A DNA stretch of 64,000 nucleotides. Origin: an uncultured Smithella sp. (GTDB lineage: Bacteria; Desulfobacterota; Syntrophia; Syntrophales; Smithellaceae). A program made the translations under genes and the position numbers. Below, piece by piece: positions 1-7,296 of this stretch. Under the pieces are notes generated by a model. That model was not told where the DNA came from, searched no databases, and saw only the letters and a list, made by a program, of their open reading frames with translations. Each line of letters starts with the position of its first letter. The first letter of the stretch is position 1. The DNA is taken from NCBI GenBank assembly GCA_964394715.1, contig CAYMYR010000003.1:12457-76456 (forward strand). Direction: 5' to 3'.

Positions 1-179
1 AGTATCCCGAAAAATGGGGCGAAATTGCTTCTGTTTTTTCCAAAGACGCCATCCTCAAGGGCTCGTTTGACAAATATGCCGAATCCAATAAAGGCAAGCG
101 TGGCACCGCTGAAGTGGACAGCGCGTTTCTAGCGGAAATAGAAAGCTGGCGCGAGATGCTGGCTTTTGCTGAGGGTTAA
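1..179 (+). pseudogene. Truncated N-terminal part of a type IIG (Eco57I-like, fused REase-MTase) restriction-modification gene, running in from the left edge
   Basis: The frame from nt 3 reads YPEKWGEIASVFSKDAILKGSFDKYAESNKGKRGTAEVDSAFLAEIESWREMLA-FAEG-stop (TAA 177-179). I recognise this segment as the region preceding the MTase domain in type IIG enzymes. No MTase motifs follow. Confidence 0.6.
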
Positions 180-217
180 GAGATGGCTTTAGAAAACCAG
201 AAGGTGGTGTTAAATTA

Positions 218-571
218 ATGAAGAGACGAGACTTGGATCATCTCGCAGAACTTTTGCGGGAATTTGCTATTGAACGGGATTGGGAACAATTTCACTCACC
301 TAAGAATTTGGCAATGGCGCTTACTGTAGAAACCGCAGAATTGCTCGAGCATTTCCAGTGGATGACTGAGGTTGCAAGTGCAAAACCGTCTCCAGAAAAG
401 CTACAGCAAATCAGGGATGAGATTGGTGATGTGTTGATTTATCTGACGTGTTTTGCTGATAAGCTCGGAATTGACCCGCTTGATGCGGCATACAAGAAGT
501 TGGAAATAAATCGCCAGAAATATCCTGTTGAAAAAGCACGAGGTTCTGCAAAAAAATATACGGAGCTATAG
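218..571 (+). CDS. MazG-like nucleotide pyrophosphohydrolase (dCTP pyrophosphatase/RS21-C6 type)
   Basis: RDWEQFHSPKNLAMAL..E.AELLEHFQW and EIGDV motifs. Confidence 0.9.
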   Translation: MKRRDLDHLAELLREFAIERDWEQFHSPKNLAMALTVETAELLEHFQWMTEVASAKPSPEKLQQIRDEIGDVLIYLTCFADKLGIDPLDAAYKKLEINRQKYPVEKARGSAKKYTEL

Positions 572-645
572 AAAAACTTTGTAATTTAAAACATATGATA
601 GTGGTGACAAGGCTTCCATAGCCTACTTCAATCGGAGCTAATCTA

Positions 646-3087
646 GTGATTGTTTATTCCGCTACGAAAGCAAAATTTCAAGATGACGTCATGACAAATG
701 ACATCGGTAATATTATTTACGATAAATATAAGGCTGTTACAGGTAGGAAGACAGGGAAAGCAGAAATAAATTCTTGGATGAATTCTCTGCAATACATGGA
801 TCGCGTTTTAACGGACGATGATATCCCGAGTGACGCAGGTGTTGCGATCGAGTATCATATTCCGCAAACGTCAAACCGAATCGACTTTATATTAACGGGG
901 ACAGATGACCAAGATAGAGAATCAGCAATACTTATTGAGCTCAAACAGTGGCAACATGCAGCCTTAACGGCAAAAGATGCAATAGTTAGAACACGATTTC
1001 AACATGGAGAAATAGAAAGGCCACACCCCTCCTATCAAGCATGGTCATACAAATGTCTTCTGGAAGATTTCAACCAGACCGTGCAAGAAGACAAAATACA
1101 ACTTTATCCCTGCGCATATCTTCATAATTATGAGCAAGACAAGGTTATTGCCAACGATTTTTACAATGAATACATTCGCAAAGCCCCTCTTTTCCTTAAA
1201 GGCGATGCTCTTAAGCTGCGCGAGTTCATAAAAATTAACGTAAAATATGGCGACACAAAGCAAATCATGTACCGTATTGATCACGGCAAGATAAAACCAT
1301 CAAAAAATCTTGCTGATCAACTTTTGTCAATGCTTCAGGGTAATGAAGAGTTTATAATGATTGATGATCAGAAGGTCGTTTATGAAACGGCCATCAAATA
1401 TGCCAAGGAATCTTCTGCAAAAAAGAAAAAAGTGTTGATCGTTGAGGGTGGCCCAGGGACAGGAAAGTCAGTTATCGCAATTAACCTGCTTGTTAAACTA
1501 ACAAATCGCGAACTTGTTGTGCAATATGTTACGCGCAATTCGGCGCCACGTTTAGTATACGAGGCCATGCTCACCAACTCATTTAAAAAATCACGTATAT
1601 CAAATATGTTCAAAGGTTCGGGATCTTATTATTCAATAGCAGAGAACAGCTTTGATTGTTTGATCGTCGATGAAGCTCACAGACTCAACGCAAAAGGGGG
1701 TATATTTAATCATCTTGGTGAAAATCAGATTAAAGAGATAATCAACGCCAGTAAGTTCAGCGTATTTTTTATAGATGAAGACCAAAAAGTGACCCTCAAA
1801 GATATTGGTGATAAAGAAGAAATCAAACGTTGGGCAAAACAGTTGAAAGTAGGTGTTGCCGAACTCAAACTTGAGTCACAGTTTCGATGTAATGGTTCTA
1901 CAGGATACCTTTCCTGGCTTGATAATACACTACAGATTCGACAAACAGCAAACGAAATACTTAAATCTAATGAATATGATTTCCGTATTGTTGATAGTCC
2001 GGTAGAACTGCACAATATTATCCGTGAGAAGAACAAGGAAAAGAATAAAGCTCGATTGGTTGCGGGTTATTGCTGGAAATGGATAAGCAAGCGCAATCCC
2101 CACCTCAAGGATATTGTTATCGGTGATTACAAGGCAACTTGGAATCTCGACACCGACGGACAAGCTTGGATTATCAAGCCTGATTCAGTCAGTGAAGTCG
2201 GCTGTATACATACTTGTCAAGGATTAGAATTAGACTATGTTGGCGTAATTGTTGGCAATGATTTGATAGTGCGTAATGGGAAAATCATTACTCAACCCCA
2301 AGAACGAGCTAGTACGGATAAATCAATCCATGGTTGGAAATCTCTTTTTCGAGAAAAACCAGGCGCTACAATGAGGCGTCTCGATGCCATCATTAAGAAT
2401 ACTTACCGTACGCTTATGACCCGTGGACAAAAAGGTTGCTACGTCTATTTTACAGATAAAGAAACTCAACAACATTTTGAGAAATACATGGAGACTCCGT
2501 CTACCGGTTTCGAAATCACCATTGCTAAGTCTTTAACTGAAGAAACTCATTCATCTGTTATTCTACCTTTCAGGCGGTTGTCGCTCGAAGATGTTAGACC
2601 TTTTGAAAATTGTGTTCCTCTATATGATCTTAAGGTAGCGGCTGGAAAGTTTAGCGATGAACAACAGGTTACGGATATACATGGTGGATTGAGCGAACAA
2701 ACTATTCACGATAATGAGTGGGTTCAACTTCCCGATGTCTTTCGCCATCAGCGAGGTCTTTTTGTAGCGCAAGTTGTTGGTGAGTCGATGAATCGCCGCA
2801 TACCGAACGGCTCATGGTGTCTCTTTAGGCTAAATCCCGCAGGTACTCGGCAAGGCAAGATCGTCCTTGCACAACATAGAGATATTAATGATGTTGACAA
2901 TGGGGGACAATTCACCGTTAAAAAATACGAAAGTAAAAAAAGACATCTATCAGATGGAACGTGGCGGCACACTTCTATTATTCTATTACCCGAGACCACC
3001 TTACCAGGATATGAACCACTAACATTTACAGAGGAACAATCATGTGATGTGAAGGTAATTGCAGAACTAGTGGCTGTGCTTGGTTGA
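646..3087 (+). CDS. DUF2075 (Schlafen group 3-like) nuclease-helicase with C-terminal S24/LexA-type peptidase domain
   Basis: PD-(D/E)xK-like motif (AIEY..RIDF..IELKQW), Walker A GGPGTGKS, Walker B IVDEAH, motif VI TYRTLMTRG. C-terminus has KVAAG cleavage-site-like motif, VVGESMN (Ser) and TVKKY (Lys). Confidence 0.85.
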   Translation: MIVYSATKAKFQDDVMTNDIGNIIYDKYKAVTGRKTGKAEINSWMNSLQYMDRVLTDDDIPSDAGVAIEYHIPQTSNRIDFILTGTDDQDRESAILIELKQWQHAALTAKDAIVRTRFQHGEIERPHPSYQAWSYKCLLEDFNQTVQEDKIQLYPCAYLHNYEQDKVIANDFYNEYIRKAPLFLKGDALKLREFIKINVKYGDTKQIMYRIDHGKIKPSKNLADQLLSMLQGNEEFIMIDDQKVVYETAIKYAKESSAKKKKVLIVEGGPGTGKSVIAINLLVKLTNRELVVQYVTRNSAPRLVYEAMLTNSFKKSRISNMFKGSGSYYSIAENSFDCLIVDEAHRLNAKGGIFNHLGENQIKEIINASKFSVFFIDEDQKVTLKDIGDKEEIKRWAKQLKVGVAELKLESQFRCNGSTGYLSWLDNTLQIRQTANEILKSNEYDFRIVDSPVELHNIIREKNKEKNKARLVAGYCWKWISKRNPHLKDIVIGDYKATWNLDTDGQAWIIKPDSVSEVGCIHTCQGLELDYVGVIVGNDLIVRNGKIITQPQERASTDKSIHGWKSLFREKPGATMRRLDAIIKNTYRTLMTRGQKGCYVYFTDKETQQHFEKYMETPSTGFEITIAKSLTEETHSSVILPFRRLSLEDVRPFENCVPLYDLKVAAGKFSDEQQVTDIHGGLSEQTIHDNEWVQLPDVFRHQRGLFVAQVVGESMNRRIPNGSWCLFRLNPAGTRQGKIVLAQHRDINDVDNGGQFTVKKYESKKRHLSDGTWRHTSIILLPETTLPGYEPLTFTEEQSCDVKVIAELVAVLG

Positions 3088-3132
3088 TTTAGGATGTAGA
3101 TACTGCCTACGGCAACCAATCTATGTGACGGC

Positions 3133-3207
3133 AAACAGATCGACAAACTGGTTTATGAACTCTATGGCCTGACCGAAGACGAAATTAAAATCGTTGAAGG
3201 CACATAA
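3133..3207 (+). pseudogene. Orphan 3' tail of a type IIG RM gene, copy 1
   Basis: KQIDKLVYELYGLTEDEIKIVEGT-stop, the typical C-terminus of Eco57I/TaqI-like enzymes. In-frame stop at 3097 upstream and no start codon. Confidence 0.7.
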
Positions 3208-3210
3208 AAT

Positions 3211-3278
3211 GTAGGGGCTGTTCGCCGAACAGCCCGATTAAGCCGCAAATAACGGCGTGTTCGGCGAACACGCCCTAC
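3211..3278. repeat. Inverted pair of GTAG-type REP elements (REPIN-like), copy 1
   Basis: GTAG-GGGCTGTTCG-C-CGAACAGCCC (3211-3235) and, inverted, GGCGTGTTCG-G-CGAACACGCC-CTAC (3254-3278). Confidence 0.8.
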
Positions 3279-3418
3279 AAAACGTAACTCCCGGAAGAAA
3301 TCACCAACGTGGAAAAACGAGGTAATTGCAATATTTTTCTTTTCCCAAAATAGAACATATGCTATTCGTTCCATAAATCTCACAATCAATTAATCACCCA
3401 TATCCAACAGGATAGAAG

Positions 3419-3928
3419 ATGAAAAGGTTTTTTTCATTCTTGATATGTATCTTTCTGGTTACCGCGTGTAGCCCTGCCACAAAGGAAAAGGAAATTTCGG
3501 GTTTGACCGTTGATAGACTTATTTTGGAAAAATCCAAAAGACAACTCCATATGCTTTCGAACGGGAAAATTGTAAAAACCTATAAGGTATCTTTGGGGAG
3601 AAATCCTATAGGACACAAAACCCGGGAGGGTGATGGAAAAACGCCGGAGGGCGCTTATTTAATTGACAGAAGATATGCAAGAAGCGCCTATCACCGTTCC
3701 TTGCATATCTCTTACCCTTCGGCTGACGATATAAAGAAGGCTCAAATGGCTGGTGTGTCTCCGGGTGGTGATATTATGATTCACGGCCTTCCAAACGGTT
3801 TTGGTTTTCTTGCCCCATTCCATCATCTGAAGGACTGGACACAAGGCTGCATTGCCGTGGCCAACAAAGAAATTGAAGAAATATGGAACAACGTTTCTGG
3901 TGGAACGGTTATTGTCATTAAACCATAA
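3419..3928 (+). CDS. L,D-transpeptidase family (YkuD/YafK-like) lipoprotein
   Basis: Lipobox-like FLVTAC, KTREGDGKTPEG, IMIHGLPNG...WTQGCIAV catalytic His/Cys. Confidence 0.9.
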   Translation: MKRFFSFLICIFLVTACSPATKEKEISGLTVDRLILEKSKRQLHMLSNGKIVKTYKVSLGRNPIGHKTREGDGKTPEGAYLIDRRYARSAYHRSLHISYPSADDIKKAQMAGVSPGGDIMIHGLPNGFGFLAPFHHLKDWTQGCIAVANKEIEEIWNNVSGGTVIVIKP

Positions 3929-3952
3929 TAATATTGGACGGAGATTAATCTT

Positions 3953-4693
3953 ATGTTCGGACATGAGGTGCAAATCGAGGTACAAGGAAGAACTTATTGT
4001 ATTTACAAATGGCCCAATATTCCAACCTATTTATGTATCGAACATGAAGTATACCCAGACCATGTTTTACCGTCCTGCCGTAACGATTCGATAAACATGA
4101 TGAGGTTGAGATCTGTTTTGGACAACACATACCAAAATCATTTAAACCGCATGTCCAACGATCAAGTTATTAAAGCTGTCAAACATATGCTGAGCACCGG
4201 CAGAGCAGTTCTTGCTGGAAAACGCAATCTACAGTTTGTTCAGTCACTGCGCTTCGATGGAAAAAAACTATGTTGGATCGATTATTGCGGATCGGAAAGA
4301 AAATGTTGGCCCGCTGTGTCCGGACGTTCGGGATATCAGACCAAAGAGCACCAAGGAAAGGCTGATGATGGGCCTTTACCGGAAGGACGCTGGCTTGTTA
4401 GGCAGTCAGGTTATCAGAAAATATCCCTTGCAGATGCTGTTGTCGGAATGACGAGTGTGATAGGATTTAAACGAGGAAAATGGCCGGGAAGTGTAATAGC
4501 GTGGGGCGCTCATCGTGTCTGGCTTAATCCATGCGCTGGAACCAATACTTTTAACAGGAAAGGTTTTTCCATACACGGAGGGTGGGCAGCAGGATCAGCA
4601 GGTTGCATTGATATGACTTCATCCATTTCGGAATTTGTTTCTTATTTTTTAGAATACGGAAAAGACATGGAGTTGATTGTTGAATACAAATAA
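3953..4693 (+). CDS. Tlde1/DUF2778-domain protein (L,D-transpeptidase-fold effector-like) with an unknown N-terminal ~90 aa
   Basis: AVSG...GPLPEGRW...GFSIHGG...GSAGCID motifs. Confidence 0.75.
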   Translation: MFGHEVQIEVQGRTYCIYKWPNIPTYLCIEHEVYPDHVLPSCRNDSINMMRLRSVLDNTYQNHLNRMSNDQVIKAVKHMLSTGRAVLAGKRNLQFVQSLRFDGKKLCWIDYCGSERKCWPAVSGRSGYQTKEHQGKADDGPLPEGRWLVRQSGYQKISLADAVVGMTSVIGFKRGKWPGSVIAWGAHRVWLNPCAGTNTFNRKGFSIHGGWAAGSAGCIDMTSSISEFVSYFLEYGKDMELIVEYK

Positions 4694-5018
4694 ATCAAAG
4701 ATCATATTTAGATATATAAATATTGTTATTGCAGTACTCACGGGCATTCTGGCTGTTATTTTAGCCTGGGATTTAATCGATTTTATGAAAAATCCAGAAG
4801 GGTATTATCGACTTTTCGGTAAAGGAACCAGCCTTGGTTGTAATTATCAATCTGCCAAAAACTATATGATTTTTGCTGCCACGGGAACAATTTCAATGCT
4901 TGTTGCTTTTACCATTGGCTTCTTCTTTAAAGATAACCGATGGGCAATTTGTGCCAGACTCTGTTGTGCGGCGTTTGTTTATGTTATTGAATATATACTT
5001 TCTATTCAATTATGTTAG
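4677..5018 (+). CDS. Small membrane protein (about 3 TM), candidate immunity protein
   Basis: Overlaps the end of the Tlde1-like gene by 17 nt and has three hydrophobic stretches. Confidence 0.55.
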   Translation: MLNTNKSKIIFRYINIVIAVLTGILAVILAWDLIDFMKNPEGYYRLFGKGTSLGCNYQSAKNYMIFAATGTISMLVAFTIGFFFKDNRWAICARLCCAAFVYVIEYILSIQLC

Positions 5019-5035
5019 TTTTTAACAAAGCCAAC

Positions 5036-5110
5036 CGGCAGATCAACAAACTGGTTTACGAACTCTACGGTCTGACCGAAGACGAAATTAAAATCGTTGA
5101 AAGCACATAA
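5036..5110 (+). pseudogene. Orphan 3' tail of a type IIG RM gene, copy 2
   Basis: RQINKLVYELYGLTEDEIKIVEST-stop. 5039-5110 matches 3136-3207 at 67 of 72 nt. Confidence 0.7.
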
Positions 5111-5113
5111 AAC

Positions 5114-5200
5114 GCAGGGGCTGTCCAGTGACGTTTAGGTTATTCTCGAACAGCCCGATTAATCCGCAAAATAACAGCGTGTTCGGGGAACACGCCCTAC
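5114..5200. repeat. REP pair copy 2, with a disrupted first REP
   Basis: GCAGGGGCTGT-[22 nt]-CGAACAGCCC...GCGTGTTCGGGGAACACGCCCTAC, homologous to 3211-3278. Confidence 0.75.
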
Positions 5201-5228
5201 ACGACACATCAAATTATCTCAAATTATC

Positions 5229-5257
5229 TTGACACACTTTCGGTGTTTCTATAAAGT
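5229..5257 (+). promoter_or_regulatory. Sigma70-like promoter of the liv-type operon
   Basis: TTGACA-17 nt-TAAAGT. Confidence 0.55.
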
Positions 5258-5330
5258 AGCTTTCAGTTAACGCAAAAGTGGAAGCAGATGTAGAACCCCT
5301 CTGGTGCATCAGTAGTAGCGTGGTGATCCT

Positions 5331-6401
5331 ATGGACATGAAGCGCGATTACTTTGAAGACATCGAGCTTTTCAAAAGTGGAACGGTTCTTGTGTGGACCC
5401 TCATCTTTCTTCTGTTTCTTTTTACCCTGCCCCTGTATCTGCCTTCTTATAATATTTACCTGATTAACATCATTATGGTTAACGTCATTCTGGCGGTTGG
5501 CCTGAATATCCTTGTGGGCTATACCGGCCAGATTTCTCTGGGGCATGCCGGGTTTTTTGCCGTGGGCGCGTATGGCACTTCTCTGATTATGACGCACCTG
5601 CATTTTCCCTTCCTCGCCGCTATTGTCATTGCTGCGCTGATCGCGGCTTTCCTGGGCTTTATCATCGGCCTGCCTGCGCTTCGCCTTGAAGGGCCATATC
5701 TCGCCATCGCTACTCTGGGCTTCGGCCTCACCATCATGCATATTATCGGCCGCTGGGAAATCTTTGGAGGCAGAATGGGAATCACCGCGCCGCCTCTGGA
5801 TCTGGGGCTTCCTGATTCCTCCTTTAGTTTTGTCATCAAGGGGGATGTCCAGATCTATTATCTCATTTTGATTATTACGATATTGCTCGTTATCGGGGCG
5901 CGCAATCTTATGAAAACACGCGTGGGAAGAGCGTTCATGTCCATTCGCGACGACGATATTGCCGCCGAAGTCATGGGCGTGAATCTGACCATCTATAAAA
6001 CCATGTCTTTTGCCGTGAGTGCTTTTTATGCAGGAATTGCCGGCGGTCTTTACGGTTTTGTTGTCAGTTTCTTCGATCCCTTTTCCTTCAATCTGATTCT
6101 TTCCATCATCTTTCTGGTGATGGTGGTTGTCGGTGGCCTGGGGTCTGTTCTTGGTGCGATTATGGGGGCTATTCTCATCACCTACCTGCAGTATGACCTT
6201 TTAAAAAACGTGGAAAACCTGCCATACCTGGGAGGACTGCTGGTAGCCATCTCCAAGAAGTGGTTTACGGTCATCGGACTGGCGAACTTTGCCGGCATTG
6301 CCCTGGGACTCATCATGATTGCCATTGTTATTTTTGAACCGCTCGGAATGTTCGGTATCTGGATCCGGATTAAGAAGTATTGGAAGACCTGGCCGTTTTA
6401 G
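5331..6401 (+). CDS. livM: Branched-chain amino acid (HAAT) ABC transporter permease
   Basis: GYTGQISLGHAGFFAVGAY, LRLEGPYLAIATLGF, GRAFMSIRDD. Confidence 0.92.
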   Translation: MDMKRDYFEDIELFKSGTVLVWTLIFLLFLFTLPLYLPSYNIYLINIIMVNVILAVGLNILVGYTGQISLGHAGFFAVGAYGTSLIMTHLHFPFLAAIVIAALIAAFLGFIIGLPALRLEGPYLAIATLGFGLTIMHIIGRWEIFGGRMGITAPPLDLGLPDSSFSFVIKGDVQIYYLILIITILLVIGARNLMKTRVGRAFMSIRDDDIAAEVMGVNLTIYKTMSFAVSAFYAGIAGGLYGFVVSFFDPFSFNLILSIIFLVMVVVGGLGSVLGAIMGAILITYLQYDLLKNVENLPYLGGLLVAISKKWFTVIGLANFAGIALGLIMIAIVIFEPLGMFGIWIRIKKYWKTWPF

Positions 6402-6423
6402 GGCCAAAAGGGAGTTGTTTTAC

Positions 6424-7296
6424 ATGTTTGAAATGCTGCTGATTGAGGGTCTGGCCATCGGTGCCTGTTACGGCCTTTTCGGCGTCGCCGTTGCCATTAT
6501 CTACAAAACGTCGGATGTGGTAAACTTTGCCCAGGGTGAGATGGGCATGATGTCTACCTTTGTCGCCTACCAGATCATGACCGTTTACGGGTGGCCTTTC
6601 TACATTGCTTTCCCTGCAACGCTCATCTTTGCCATTTTGCTCGGTATGGCCATCGAATTCTGCTTTTTACGCCCGGCCAAGGAACCGACGGTTTTGGGGC
6701 TGCTCATTTTAACGCTGGGTGCGGAAATGCTGCTCATGGGACTGGCCGGATGGAAATGGGGCGCGGAGCAAAAAGATTTTCCGTTTCTGCTTTCCGTCCA
6801 CAAAACCGTTGAAATTTTTCCCGGCTTTGCACTGAACGAATGGACAATCGGGGTCTTTGTGCTGACTACCGTTGTCATGGTTCTGCTTTTCCTGTTTTTC
6901 CGCTATTCCAAACTGGGGATCGCCATGAGGGCAACCCAGCAGAATGAAAATGCCGCCAAAATCATGGGGATCAAGGTTGAAAGAGTTTTTTCTATTACGT
7001 GGGGAATGAGTTCGTTAATTGGCGCGCTGGCGGCCATGTTTTTCGCAGCCCGTTCCGTGCTGGATCCTAATTTCATGATGGAACCTTTTATGCGCGCCTT
7101 CGCAGCAGCCGTTTTGGGAGGGCTTACCAGTATTCCGGGCGTGGTCATCGGCGGATTAATAATGGGCATAGTTGAGAACTTCTTTGGCTATGCATGGCCG
7201 GAATGGAAACCGATTGTGGCCTTTGTTGTCATTATTCTGATTATTACCGTCAGGCCAAGCGGATTGTTCAGCAAACATTACGTAAAAAAAGTTTAG
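6424..7296 (+). CDS. livH: HAAT ABC transporter permease
   Basis: VVNFAQGE, GIAMRATQQN, AFAAAVLGGL. Start taken at ATG 6424 behind a GGGAG site. Confidence 0.92.
   Translation: MFEMLLIEGLAIGACYGLFGVAVAIIYKTSDVVNFAQGEMGMMSTFVAYQIMTVYGWPFYIAFPATLIFAILLGMAIEFCFLRPAKEPTVLGLLILTLGAEMLLMGLAGWKWGAEQKDFPFLLSVHKTVEIFPGFALNEWTIGVFVLTTVVMVLLFLFFRYSKLGIAMRATQQNENAAKIMGIKVERVFSITWGMSSLIGALAAMFFAARSVLDPNFMMEPFMRAFAAAVLGGLTSIPGVVIGGLIMGIVENFFGYAWPEWKPIVAFVVIILIITVRPSGLFSKHYVKKV

Follow-up and report, generated by a model that had tools for sequence, protein, structure and literature searches.

Among described anti-phage systems, the closest to the locus considered here are Nhi of S. epidermidis (SERP2475; Bari et al., bioRxiv 10.1101/776245), an experimentally verified protein with an N-terminal nuclease and a DUF2075 domain, and the verified single-gene 'Nhi-like' protein, which has the same domain layout (Millman et al. 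2022, bioRxiv 10.1101/2022.05.11.491447). The locus lies at the left end of a 64,000-nucleotide (nt) stretch of contig C3 from the genome of an uncultured Smithella sp. (G000:C3:12457-76456, hereafter the window) and consists of a small MazG-like gene (gene A) followed by a gene for a predicted nuclease-helicase fusion with a LexA/UmuD-type C-terminal domain (gene B). Judged from its sequence, the segment from 165 to 3132 of the window appears to be a self-contained, horizontally mobile two-gene module, and its most likely role, which we consider probable, is defence against phages or other mobile elements of the Nhi-like kind, with two additions. Like Nhi and the Nhi-like protein, gene B encodes a single polypeptide in which an N-terminal PD-(D/E)xK nuclease, for gene B predicted mainly from motifs, precedes a DUF2075 (PF09848) superfamily 1B (SF1B) helicase. 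AbiO is a further relative, and the PADLOC models for Nhi and AbiO match the region of the Walker A and B motifs of gene B. The likeness to these models is confined to amino acids (aa) ~234-418 of gene B (for the Nhi model PDLC02372, positions 180-333 of 470, E 3.6e-11), and neither PDLC02372 nor the AbiO model PDLC02350 is matched over its full length. Unlike the two single-gene systems, gene B has a MazG gene attached in most of the loci sampled, and it carries an extra LexA-type S24 domain.

Both genes are full-length open reading frames (ORFs), co-oriented and 74 nt apart (Table 1), and the AT-richness remarked upon in the initial annotation corresponds to a GC content of 0.38-0.42 across window positions ~500-5000, compared with 0.47-0.52 in the DNA that follows and 0.50-0.55 over the 12 kb that precede the window. 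All homologs open with MIVYS and a GGAG stands 9 nt upstream, both of which support the GTG start of gene B. That annotation had described gene B as a nuclease-helicase, and it had singled out the IELK and GKS motifs of gene B and the acidic residues of the MazG-like protein. All of these motifs are present, IELK and GKS invariantly and the acidic residues with at least 90% conservation, and the nuclease-helicase description agrees with the PF09848 match and the nuclease motifs, though it overlooked the C-terminal Peptidase_S24 domain.

The N-terminal domain of gene B is predicted, mainly from its motifs, to be a RecB-like PD-(D/E)xK nuclease. In an alignment of 56 homologs with 37-83% identity, E69, D80, E98 and K100 (the last two within IELK), Q131 and Y135 are invariant, an E...D...ExK...QxxxY pattern that we take to be that of the RecB/Cas4/Dna2 branch of the PD-(D/E)xK nucleases. 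Modelled alone with AlphaFold2 (AF2), the domain reaches a mean predicted local distance difference test score (pLDDT) of 88.9 with the motif residues on consecutive strands, and its weak Foldseek matches are mostly to PD-(D/E)xK nucleases (Card1, then Exo5, EcoO109I, EndoMS and Can2). A sequence profile of this domain returned zero matches in the PDB, as did the full single sequence of gene B against solved structures. In the helicase domain, aa 261-604 match PF09848 (SLFN-g3_helicase/DUF2075) at E 1.2e-107, and Walker A (GGPGTGK, including K274 of GKS) and Walker B (DEAH) are invariant in the same 56 sequences. The AF2 model of full-length gene B, built on the homolog alignment (pLDDT 82.8, predicted template modelling score 0.70), has its best PDB matches by Foldseek in human SLFN11 (E 1.9e-11), SLFN14, RecD2, RecD, Dna2 and Upf1, which assigns the helicase to SF1B. 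With its predicted RecB-like nuclease preceding an SF1B helicase, gene B resembles Dna2, and it resembles the Schlafens SLFN11 and SLFN14 in that their helicase domain is its best structural match. Identity to Dna2 and the Schlafens is only 9-13%, however, and the RNase domain at the N-terminus of the Schlafens has no relationship to the nuclease domain of gene B.

Beyond a linker that is the most variable part of the alignment, aa 658-767 of gene B match Peptidase_S24 (PF00717) with 30.3 bits (cut-off 23.3), a match that was also flagged in a genome-wide scan. All 56 sequences have the putative catalytic residues S714 (in GESM) and K759 (in TVK); position 666 (P1) is Ala in 43 and Cys in 13 and position 667 (P1') is Gly in 55 of the 56. 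In LexA and CI the scissile bond is Ala-Gly, and in UmuD it is Cys-Gly. A profile of the C-terminal 174 aa found LexA and UmuD only, among all solved structures (E ~1e-3), placing vPLydlKaAAG of gene B onto lPLvgRvAAG of LexA, with its VAAG cleavage loop, and GESM onto GMSM; the same region as a single sequence gave zero matches to solved structures. The Ser-Lys dyad and the upstream Ala/Cys-Gly site have the same order and spacing as in LexA, UmuD and lambda CI (MEROPS S24), with the difference that the passenger in gene B is an N-terminal 650-aa nuclease-helicase rather than a helix-turn-helix (HTH) repressor domain or a polymerase subunit. The S24 tail is probably the regulatory key of gene B. 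A second protein of the order, a 1975-aa DEAD/Helicase_C/MZB helicase of the DruE/YprA-like type that adjoins AbiEii in four other genomes (G041, at L105:790-6717 on the minus strand, G049, G099 and G108), also ends in an S24 tail, which is 43-48% identical to that of gene B. LexA-type tails are therefore not restricted to a single kind of defence-like helicase, and the occurrence of the same tail on a DEAD/MZB helicase beside AbiEii speaks for a portable regulatory module. A recA gene lies on the contig of the cassette ~240 nt past the right end of the window (G000:C3:76700-77488, minus strand), a proximity that is probably coincidental.

Gene A is predicted to encode a DCTPP1-type nucleoside triphosphate (NTP) pyrophosphatase with intact metal-binding residues, which upholds the RS21-C6/DCTPP1-like assignment made initially. 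It matches the Pfam MazG-like family PF12643 with 61.8 bits (curated cut-off 27), and its best solved relatives are the mouse and human DCTPP1/RS21-C6 proteins (PDB 2a3q/6sqw; E 1.5e-26, ~47% identity over 112 aa), with which it has the WEQFH, FQW, DVLIYL and NRQxYP motifs in common. The acidic residues (ExxE(xxE) ... ExxD) align to the DCTPP1 motifs, and in 44 partner genes from other loci the acidic metal ligands E38, E41, E44, E68 and D71 are at least 90% conserved, as are W22, H26, K29 and Y102. Gene A shares with DCTPP1/RS21-C6 (PDB 2a3q, 6sqw, 2oig) the all-alpha MazG-like fold family, the motifs and the acidic metal ligands, and differs in being only 117 aa long, in lacking the eukaryotic extensions and in standing in an operon with a nuclease-helicase. 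Among nucleotide-depletion defences, dCTP deaminase and dGTPase are said to have been described as such by Tal et al. in 2022. The predicted function of gene A would likewise place a member of a dNTP-destroying enzyme family in a defence context, with the difference that the hydrolase here is accessory to a nuclease effector rather than stand-alone and is absent from ~16% of loci. A defensive role of MazG domains has been predicted, though not validated (DefensePredictor, PMC13092281). Gene A had no match among the PADLOC models, which include none for it, and NCBIfam was uninformative for the pair and has no model for gene A. A search of the accessible literature found no paper linking DUF2075 or a prokaryotic Schlafen with MazG, none linking an S24 domain to a defence nuclease and nothing relevant on MazG-like proteins, anti-phage activity and helicases in combination; a domain-centric screen published in NAR in 2026 mentions none of these domains.

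Relatives of gene B number in the thousands, of which the best 120 have 68-93% identity over the full length and are named only 'DUF2075' or 'AAA ATPase'. The pairing of the two genes was surveyed in 80 gene B loci from species-representative genomes of many phyla, using tblastn for MazG, and four loci without upstream sequence left 76 that were informative. A MazG homolog lies directly upstream of gene B on the same strand in 64 of the 76, separated from it by 0-98 nt in 62 loci, with frequent overlaps, and by ~700 nt in the other two. Such pairs come from the Desulfobacterota, Gamma- and Betaproteobacteria, Bacteroidota, Elusimicrobia, Verrucomicrobia and the candidate phyla radiation (CPR), an adjacency far beyond chance, and the proposal of a two-gene system withstands the objection that homologs of the two genes might rarely co-occur. 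No third conserved gene was found near the pair when the 868 neighbouring ORFs were clustered all against all, the next most common family recurring in 8 of 80 loci. Distances among the MazG proteins and among the gene B proteins are weakly correlated (Mantel r 0.29, a value reached in 0 of 2000 permutations), and a gene B at 83% identity may be paired with a MazG at 39%. Partner alleles have been exchanged while the pairing of MazG and gene B was kept.

At this locus the limits of the module are set by what surrounds it. The pair had been reported to sit in a restriction-modification (RM) locus, yet this 'RM locus' is a single gutted Type IIG gene and not a working RM system. Upstream, a 213-aa stub represents the N-terminal PD-(D/E)xK nuclease domain of a Type IIG enzyme (PADLOC REase_MTase_IIG, E 3.1e-68; Pfam HSDR_N), matching only positions 10-216 of the 1011-position model; its identity to residues 1-209 of the intact 972-aa enzyme encoded by a genome of the same family (G035) is 83%, and the homology stops at window position 164. 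Downstream, an orphan tail agrees at 19 of 24 residues with the C-terminal 24 aa of the G035 enzyme (QIDKLVYELY.LT..EI.IVEGT*). Intact relatives of 960-1040 aa are found in 20-odd genomes of the order. The flanking remnants resemble Type IIG enzymes (MmeI/BpuSI-like) in corresponding to their nuclease domain and C-terminal tail and differ in that no methyltransferase or target recognition domain (TRD) is left and the stub persists as a 213-aa protein; no methyltransferase lies nearby. A Type IIG enzyme unites a nuclease, a gamma-class N6-adenine methyltransferase (NPPY) and a TRD in one polypeptide, of which aa 1-209 and the final 24 aa are all that is left here. Codons 210-948, with the NPPY methyltransferase and the TRD, have given way to the cassette in this lineage, and the replacement segment contains MazG and gene B only, plus ~50 nt of left and ~45 nt of right flank. 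As the borders of the Type IIG remnants enclose exactly these two genes, the cassette can be defined as a two-gene unit. It is probably transcribed together with the surviving 213-aa nuclease stub.

The replacement is lineage-specific, present in the Smithella genome studied here and in G220 and decayed in G214, and no Type IIG fragments were found beside the cassette elsewhere among the 80 loci. The genome G220, of the same genus, is syntenic with 92.6% nt identity from window position -769 to 3179, and the stub, MazG and gene B are all intact. Between this one pair of genomes, Nei-Gojobori estimates of dN/dS (the ratio of nonsynonymous to synonymous divergence) are 0.043 for the stub (12 nonsynonymous and 55 synonymous changes; synonymous divergence, dS, 0.57), 0.091 for MazG (dS 0.14), 0.161 for gene B (dS 0.20) and 0.042 for the flanking ABC permease (dS 0.55). 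These low values indicate that the stub is maintained as a protein and that the cassette genes are under purifying selection. The stub is of identical length in this second species, with a dN/dS as low as that of the flanking ABC permease, and it seems that the restriction nuclease domain was retained as a protein in its own right once the methyltransferase and TRD had been lost. Inside the low-GC blocks (window 218-5018) dS is 0.11-0.26 for four of five genes and 0.37 for YkuD1, as against 0.43-0.57 in the flanks; the lower dS of the cassette suggests either a later, recent lateral exchange between the two species or codon constraints. The genome G214, from another genus of the same family, carries a decayed derivative of the chimera (L115, G214:C8:36000-48000, at ~5028-6517) in which ~80 codons of the Type IIG N-terminus are followed by 36 nt, then by gene B's C-terminal half and finally by the start of the tail. 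Its gene B remnant is equivalent to window positions 1931-3166 with 80% nt identity, while MazG, the nuclease domain and the P-loop have been lost.

Table 1. Coordinates of the features at the left end of the window (position 1 is the first nucleotide of the window).
Feature	Position	Strand	Description or basis
Type IIG nuclease stub, 3' part	1..179	+	213-aa ORF from G000:C3:11994 to 12635, start 462 nt upstream of the window
Replacement segment	165..3132	+	2,968 nt in place of Type IIG codons 210-948; tblastn and blastn against G035, low GC
Gene A	218..571	+	117 aa, ATG start; MazG-like all-alpha NTP pyrophosphatase (predicted), DCTPP1/RS21-C6 type
Spacer between gene A and gene B	572..645	+	74 nt; GGAG 9 nt before the gene B GTG (direct read)
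Gene B	646..3087	+	813 aa, GTG start; predicted nuclease, helicase and S24 domains
Gene B, RecB-like PD-(D/E)xK nuclease domain (predicted)	646..1410	+	aa 1-255; invariant motifs, AF2 domain model
Gene B, nuclease motif codons	E69 850-852; D80 883-885; E98 937-939; K100 943-945; Q131 1036-1038; Y135 1048-1050	+	
Gene B, DUF2075/Schlafen group 3 SF1B helicase	1426..2457	+	aa 261-604; PF09848, Foldseek
Gene B, Walker A (GGPGTGKS) and Walker B (DEAH)	1447-1470; 1669-1680	+	both invariant
Gene B, predicted disordered linker, helicase to S24	2497..2556	+	aa 618-637; pLDDT <50
Gene B, LexA/UmuD-type Peptidase_S24 domain	2617..3087	+	aa 658-813; PF00717
Gene B, S24 sites	putative cleavage site A666-G667 2641-2646; Ser714 2785-2787; Lys759 2920-2922	+	
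Orphan Type IIG C-terminal tail	3133..3207 (element 3133..3279)	+	KQIDKLVYELYGLTEDEIKIVEGT*; other frame than the stub
Two hairpins after the orphan tail	3215-3235; 3254-3274	+	
Second low-GC block	YkuD 3419-3928; YkuD-like 3953-4693; small membrane ORF 4677-5018		
Second copy of orphan tail and twin hairpins	5039..5201	+	direct repeat, 80% identical to the first (blastn, translation)

Across the wider sample, context and distribution follow the pattern of a mobile defence-type cassette. Of the 151 genomes of the order, only 5 contain gene B at full length, and the other carrier sampled from the genus is only 46% identical. Relatives are found on plasmids, bacterial as well as archaeal, and in one phage of Microcystis, Mwe-JY31. 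For a 25-kb Marivirga plasmid, a single match carries the annotations of both the helicase gene and a nucleotide pyrophosphohydrolase. Only four phage records match gene B and none has the S24 form. Homologs of 72-78% identity also appear in bins assigned to very distant phyla, labelled Methanobacterium (L005) and Saccharibacteria, Kaiserbacteria and Blastocatellia (L025, L027, L039), which indicates either recent horizontal transfer or mis-binned contigs. The nearest neighbours in the 80 loci belong to 163 different Pfam families, and in top-25 tallies the most frequent include Fic, HNH_2, RhuM, RadC, HipA, McrB_N, nSTAND3, TPR-repeat, methyltransferase and HTH_3, with SoFic, HNH, PDC-S05 and PDC-S23 as the commonest PADLOC matches. 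In Geobacter sulfurreducens PCA, according to Pfam, the pair follows Phd/ParE and a transposase and precedes PLD-DEAD-DUF3427, SIR2, PRTase+RT, HNH and Mrr, and in a 5.2-Mb genome it is flanked on both sides by DUF1016 and fragments of a BsuBI/PstI restriction enzyme. Other neighbourhoods hold UvrD, Abi_2, an HTH protein and an integrase fragment; a Gp49/HTH (HigB/A-like) pair, DUF3987 and DnaB; or a WYL regulator, Fic and BrnT/CopG. A protein of 1041-1045 aa lies directly 3' of the pair in G. sulfurreducens PCA (L083:12426-15551), where it is the PLD-DEAD-DUF3427 protein, and in Geomesophilobacter sediminis (L019:8401-11526). This agrees with a remark in the literature that places DUF3427 restriction enzymes next to DUF2075 NTPases (PMC6765204). 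As this protein recurs in only 3 of 80 loci, it is regarded as a neighbour and not as a component.

If the module is a defence system, its parts suggest how it might operate. The helicase would load onto phage or other foreign DNA, or onto replication or damage intermediates, and feed DNA to the nuclease, while the S24 tail would act as a post-translational switch, with RecA-single-stranded DNA (ssDNA) filaments or another cue of infection or damage triggering self-cleavage at A666/G667. Such cleavage would separate the C-terminal domain from the enzyme and change its activity, which could be switched either on or off. The MazG protein may hydrolyse dCTP or 5-modified dCTPs, an activity that would starve phage replication or block phages from building modified, nuclease-resistant DNA. 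The anti-phage candidacy put forward in the initial annotation finds support in the defence- and mobile-element-like contexts elsewhere and little in PADLOC, which called no known system at the gene A/gene B pair and matched gene B only partially.

Several observations weigh against a defensive role. The PADLOC matches to gene B (PDC-S41, 2.8e-16; AbiO, 1.8e-11; Nhi, 3.6e-11) are partial, and the Foldseek matches of its N-terminal domain are not significant (best, Card1, E 0.028), so that the nuclease assignment rests mainly on motifs. Gene B occurs without MazG in 12 of the 76 loci (~16%), where reading the upstream ORFs by eye revealed no recurring substitute hydrolase such as a NUDIX protein, and CPR and Bacteroidota relatives of gene B are without the S24 tail; these exceptions had been overlooked in the initial annotation, and they mean that neither MazG nor the S24 tail is obligatory. 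The defence context was judged qualitatively, from tallies and five annotated examples without a matched control. In the Smithella genome itself the genes around the cassette, Type IIG remains aside, have housekeeping or cell-wall functions (PNPOx, DUF6982, YkuD, ABC transporter), so the cassette is not part of a local defence island. Finally, a LexA-like tail and a dNTP-sanitising enzyme would also suit a role in DNA damage or repair.

This last point leads to the foremost alternative, an accessory module of the DNA-damage response in which gene B would process stalled forks or damaged DNA in a Dna2/RecD2-like manner, the tail would tie it to the SOS response and MazG would clean the dNTP pool. 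House-cleaning of non-canonical or damaged dNTPs is a known role of DCTPP1 and MazG, and the DCTPP1 homology of gene A is clear, the LexA/UmuD-type domain is intact, Dna2, RecD2 and RecD are among the closest structural relatives of gene B, the neighbours in its own genome are not defence genes and RecA is encoded on the same contig. Repair genes are, however, normally vertically inherited and syntenic, whereas gene B is carried by only 5 of 151 genomes of the order, with discordant variants within one genus, has relatives on plasmids and in a phage as well as 72-78% identical homologs in bins labelled as unrelated phyla, and is inserted at varied sites beside toxin-antitoxin (TA), Abi, restriction and retron genes and, here, inside a destroyed restriction gene. 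A repair role is accordingly considered unlikely. The same mobility could instead reflect a module that serves mobile elements, through maintenance of plasmids or phages, exclusion of competitors or a toxin-like nuclease held in check by its partner, with any benefit to the host incidental. The relatives on plasmids (among them the 25-kb Marivirga plasmid) and in Microcystis phage Mwe-JY31, the integrase fragments, transposases and TA pairs that adjoin the cassette, and a cassette dS of 0.14-0.20, below the 0.43-0.57 of the flanks in the two-species comparison and a hint of lateral exchange in recent times, are all in keeping with such a role. Most copies, though, are chromosomal and without recognisable mobility genes of their own, and the four phage records all lack the S24 form; the explanation also overlaps with defence, as excluding competing elements is defence in practice, and as a separate account it appears quite unlikely. 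That the pair is an accidental neighbourhood or a set of decaying remnants is very improbable, for although the surrounding Type IIG gene is broken and G214 carries a clearly decayed derivative, both ORFs are full-length with all catalytic residues present, their dN/dS against G220 is 0.09 (MazG) and 0.16 (gene B) and MazG and gene B stay together in 64 of 76 loci from many phyla.

Should the module indeed be defensive, it would feature a nuclease gated by LexA-style self-cleavage, linking SOS/RecA to an immune effector at the level of protein and not through transcription, and a dNTP-sanitising enzyme as the standing partner of a DNA-targeting effector, possibly against modified-cytosine phages. 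A more elaborate version, which is possible but held only tentatively, is that the LexA-type tail is a portable cis-encoded sensor through which RecA-ssDNA directly controls immune nucleases after translation, that phage replication or DNA damage leads to removal of the tail from a Dna2-like nuclease-helicase at A666/G667 and so switches it, that the DCTPP1-like partner removes modified dCTPs and so keeps phage DNA cleavable, and that the displaced restriction nuclease domain has been domesticated as a third component. The same tail on the DruE/YprA-like helicase suggests a general wiring principle. The helicase of gene B is the bacterial counterpart of the helicase domain of human Schlafens, and SLFN11 responds to replication stress; the system could therefore help to trace an ancient connection between the sensing of DNA damage and the restriction of viruses. 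The local anatomy, with a cassette inside a restriction gene and a leftover nuclease domain still under selection, shows the turnover of a defence locus.

The two copies of the orphan tail with its twin hairpins (3133-3279 and 5039-5201) bracket the second low-GC block. Of 339 genomes of the order, 73 contain tail-like sequences, often with several in one genome, and it may be speculated that these elements act as recombination handles for the exchange of cassettes. The twin hairpins were considered as a genome-wide repetitive extragenic palindromic (REP) element and rejected as such, as an exact-pattern search placed their core only at this locus in the Smithella genome. Related hairpin copies occur in other genomes of the order.

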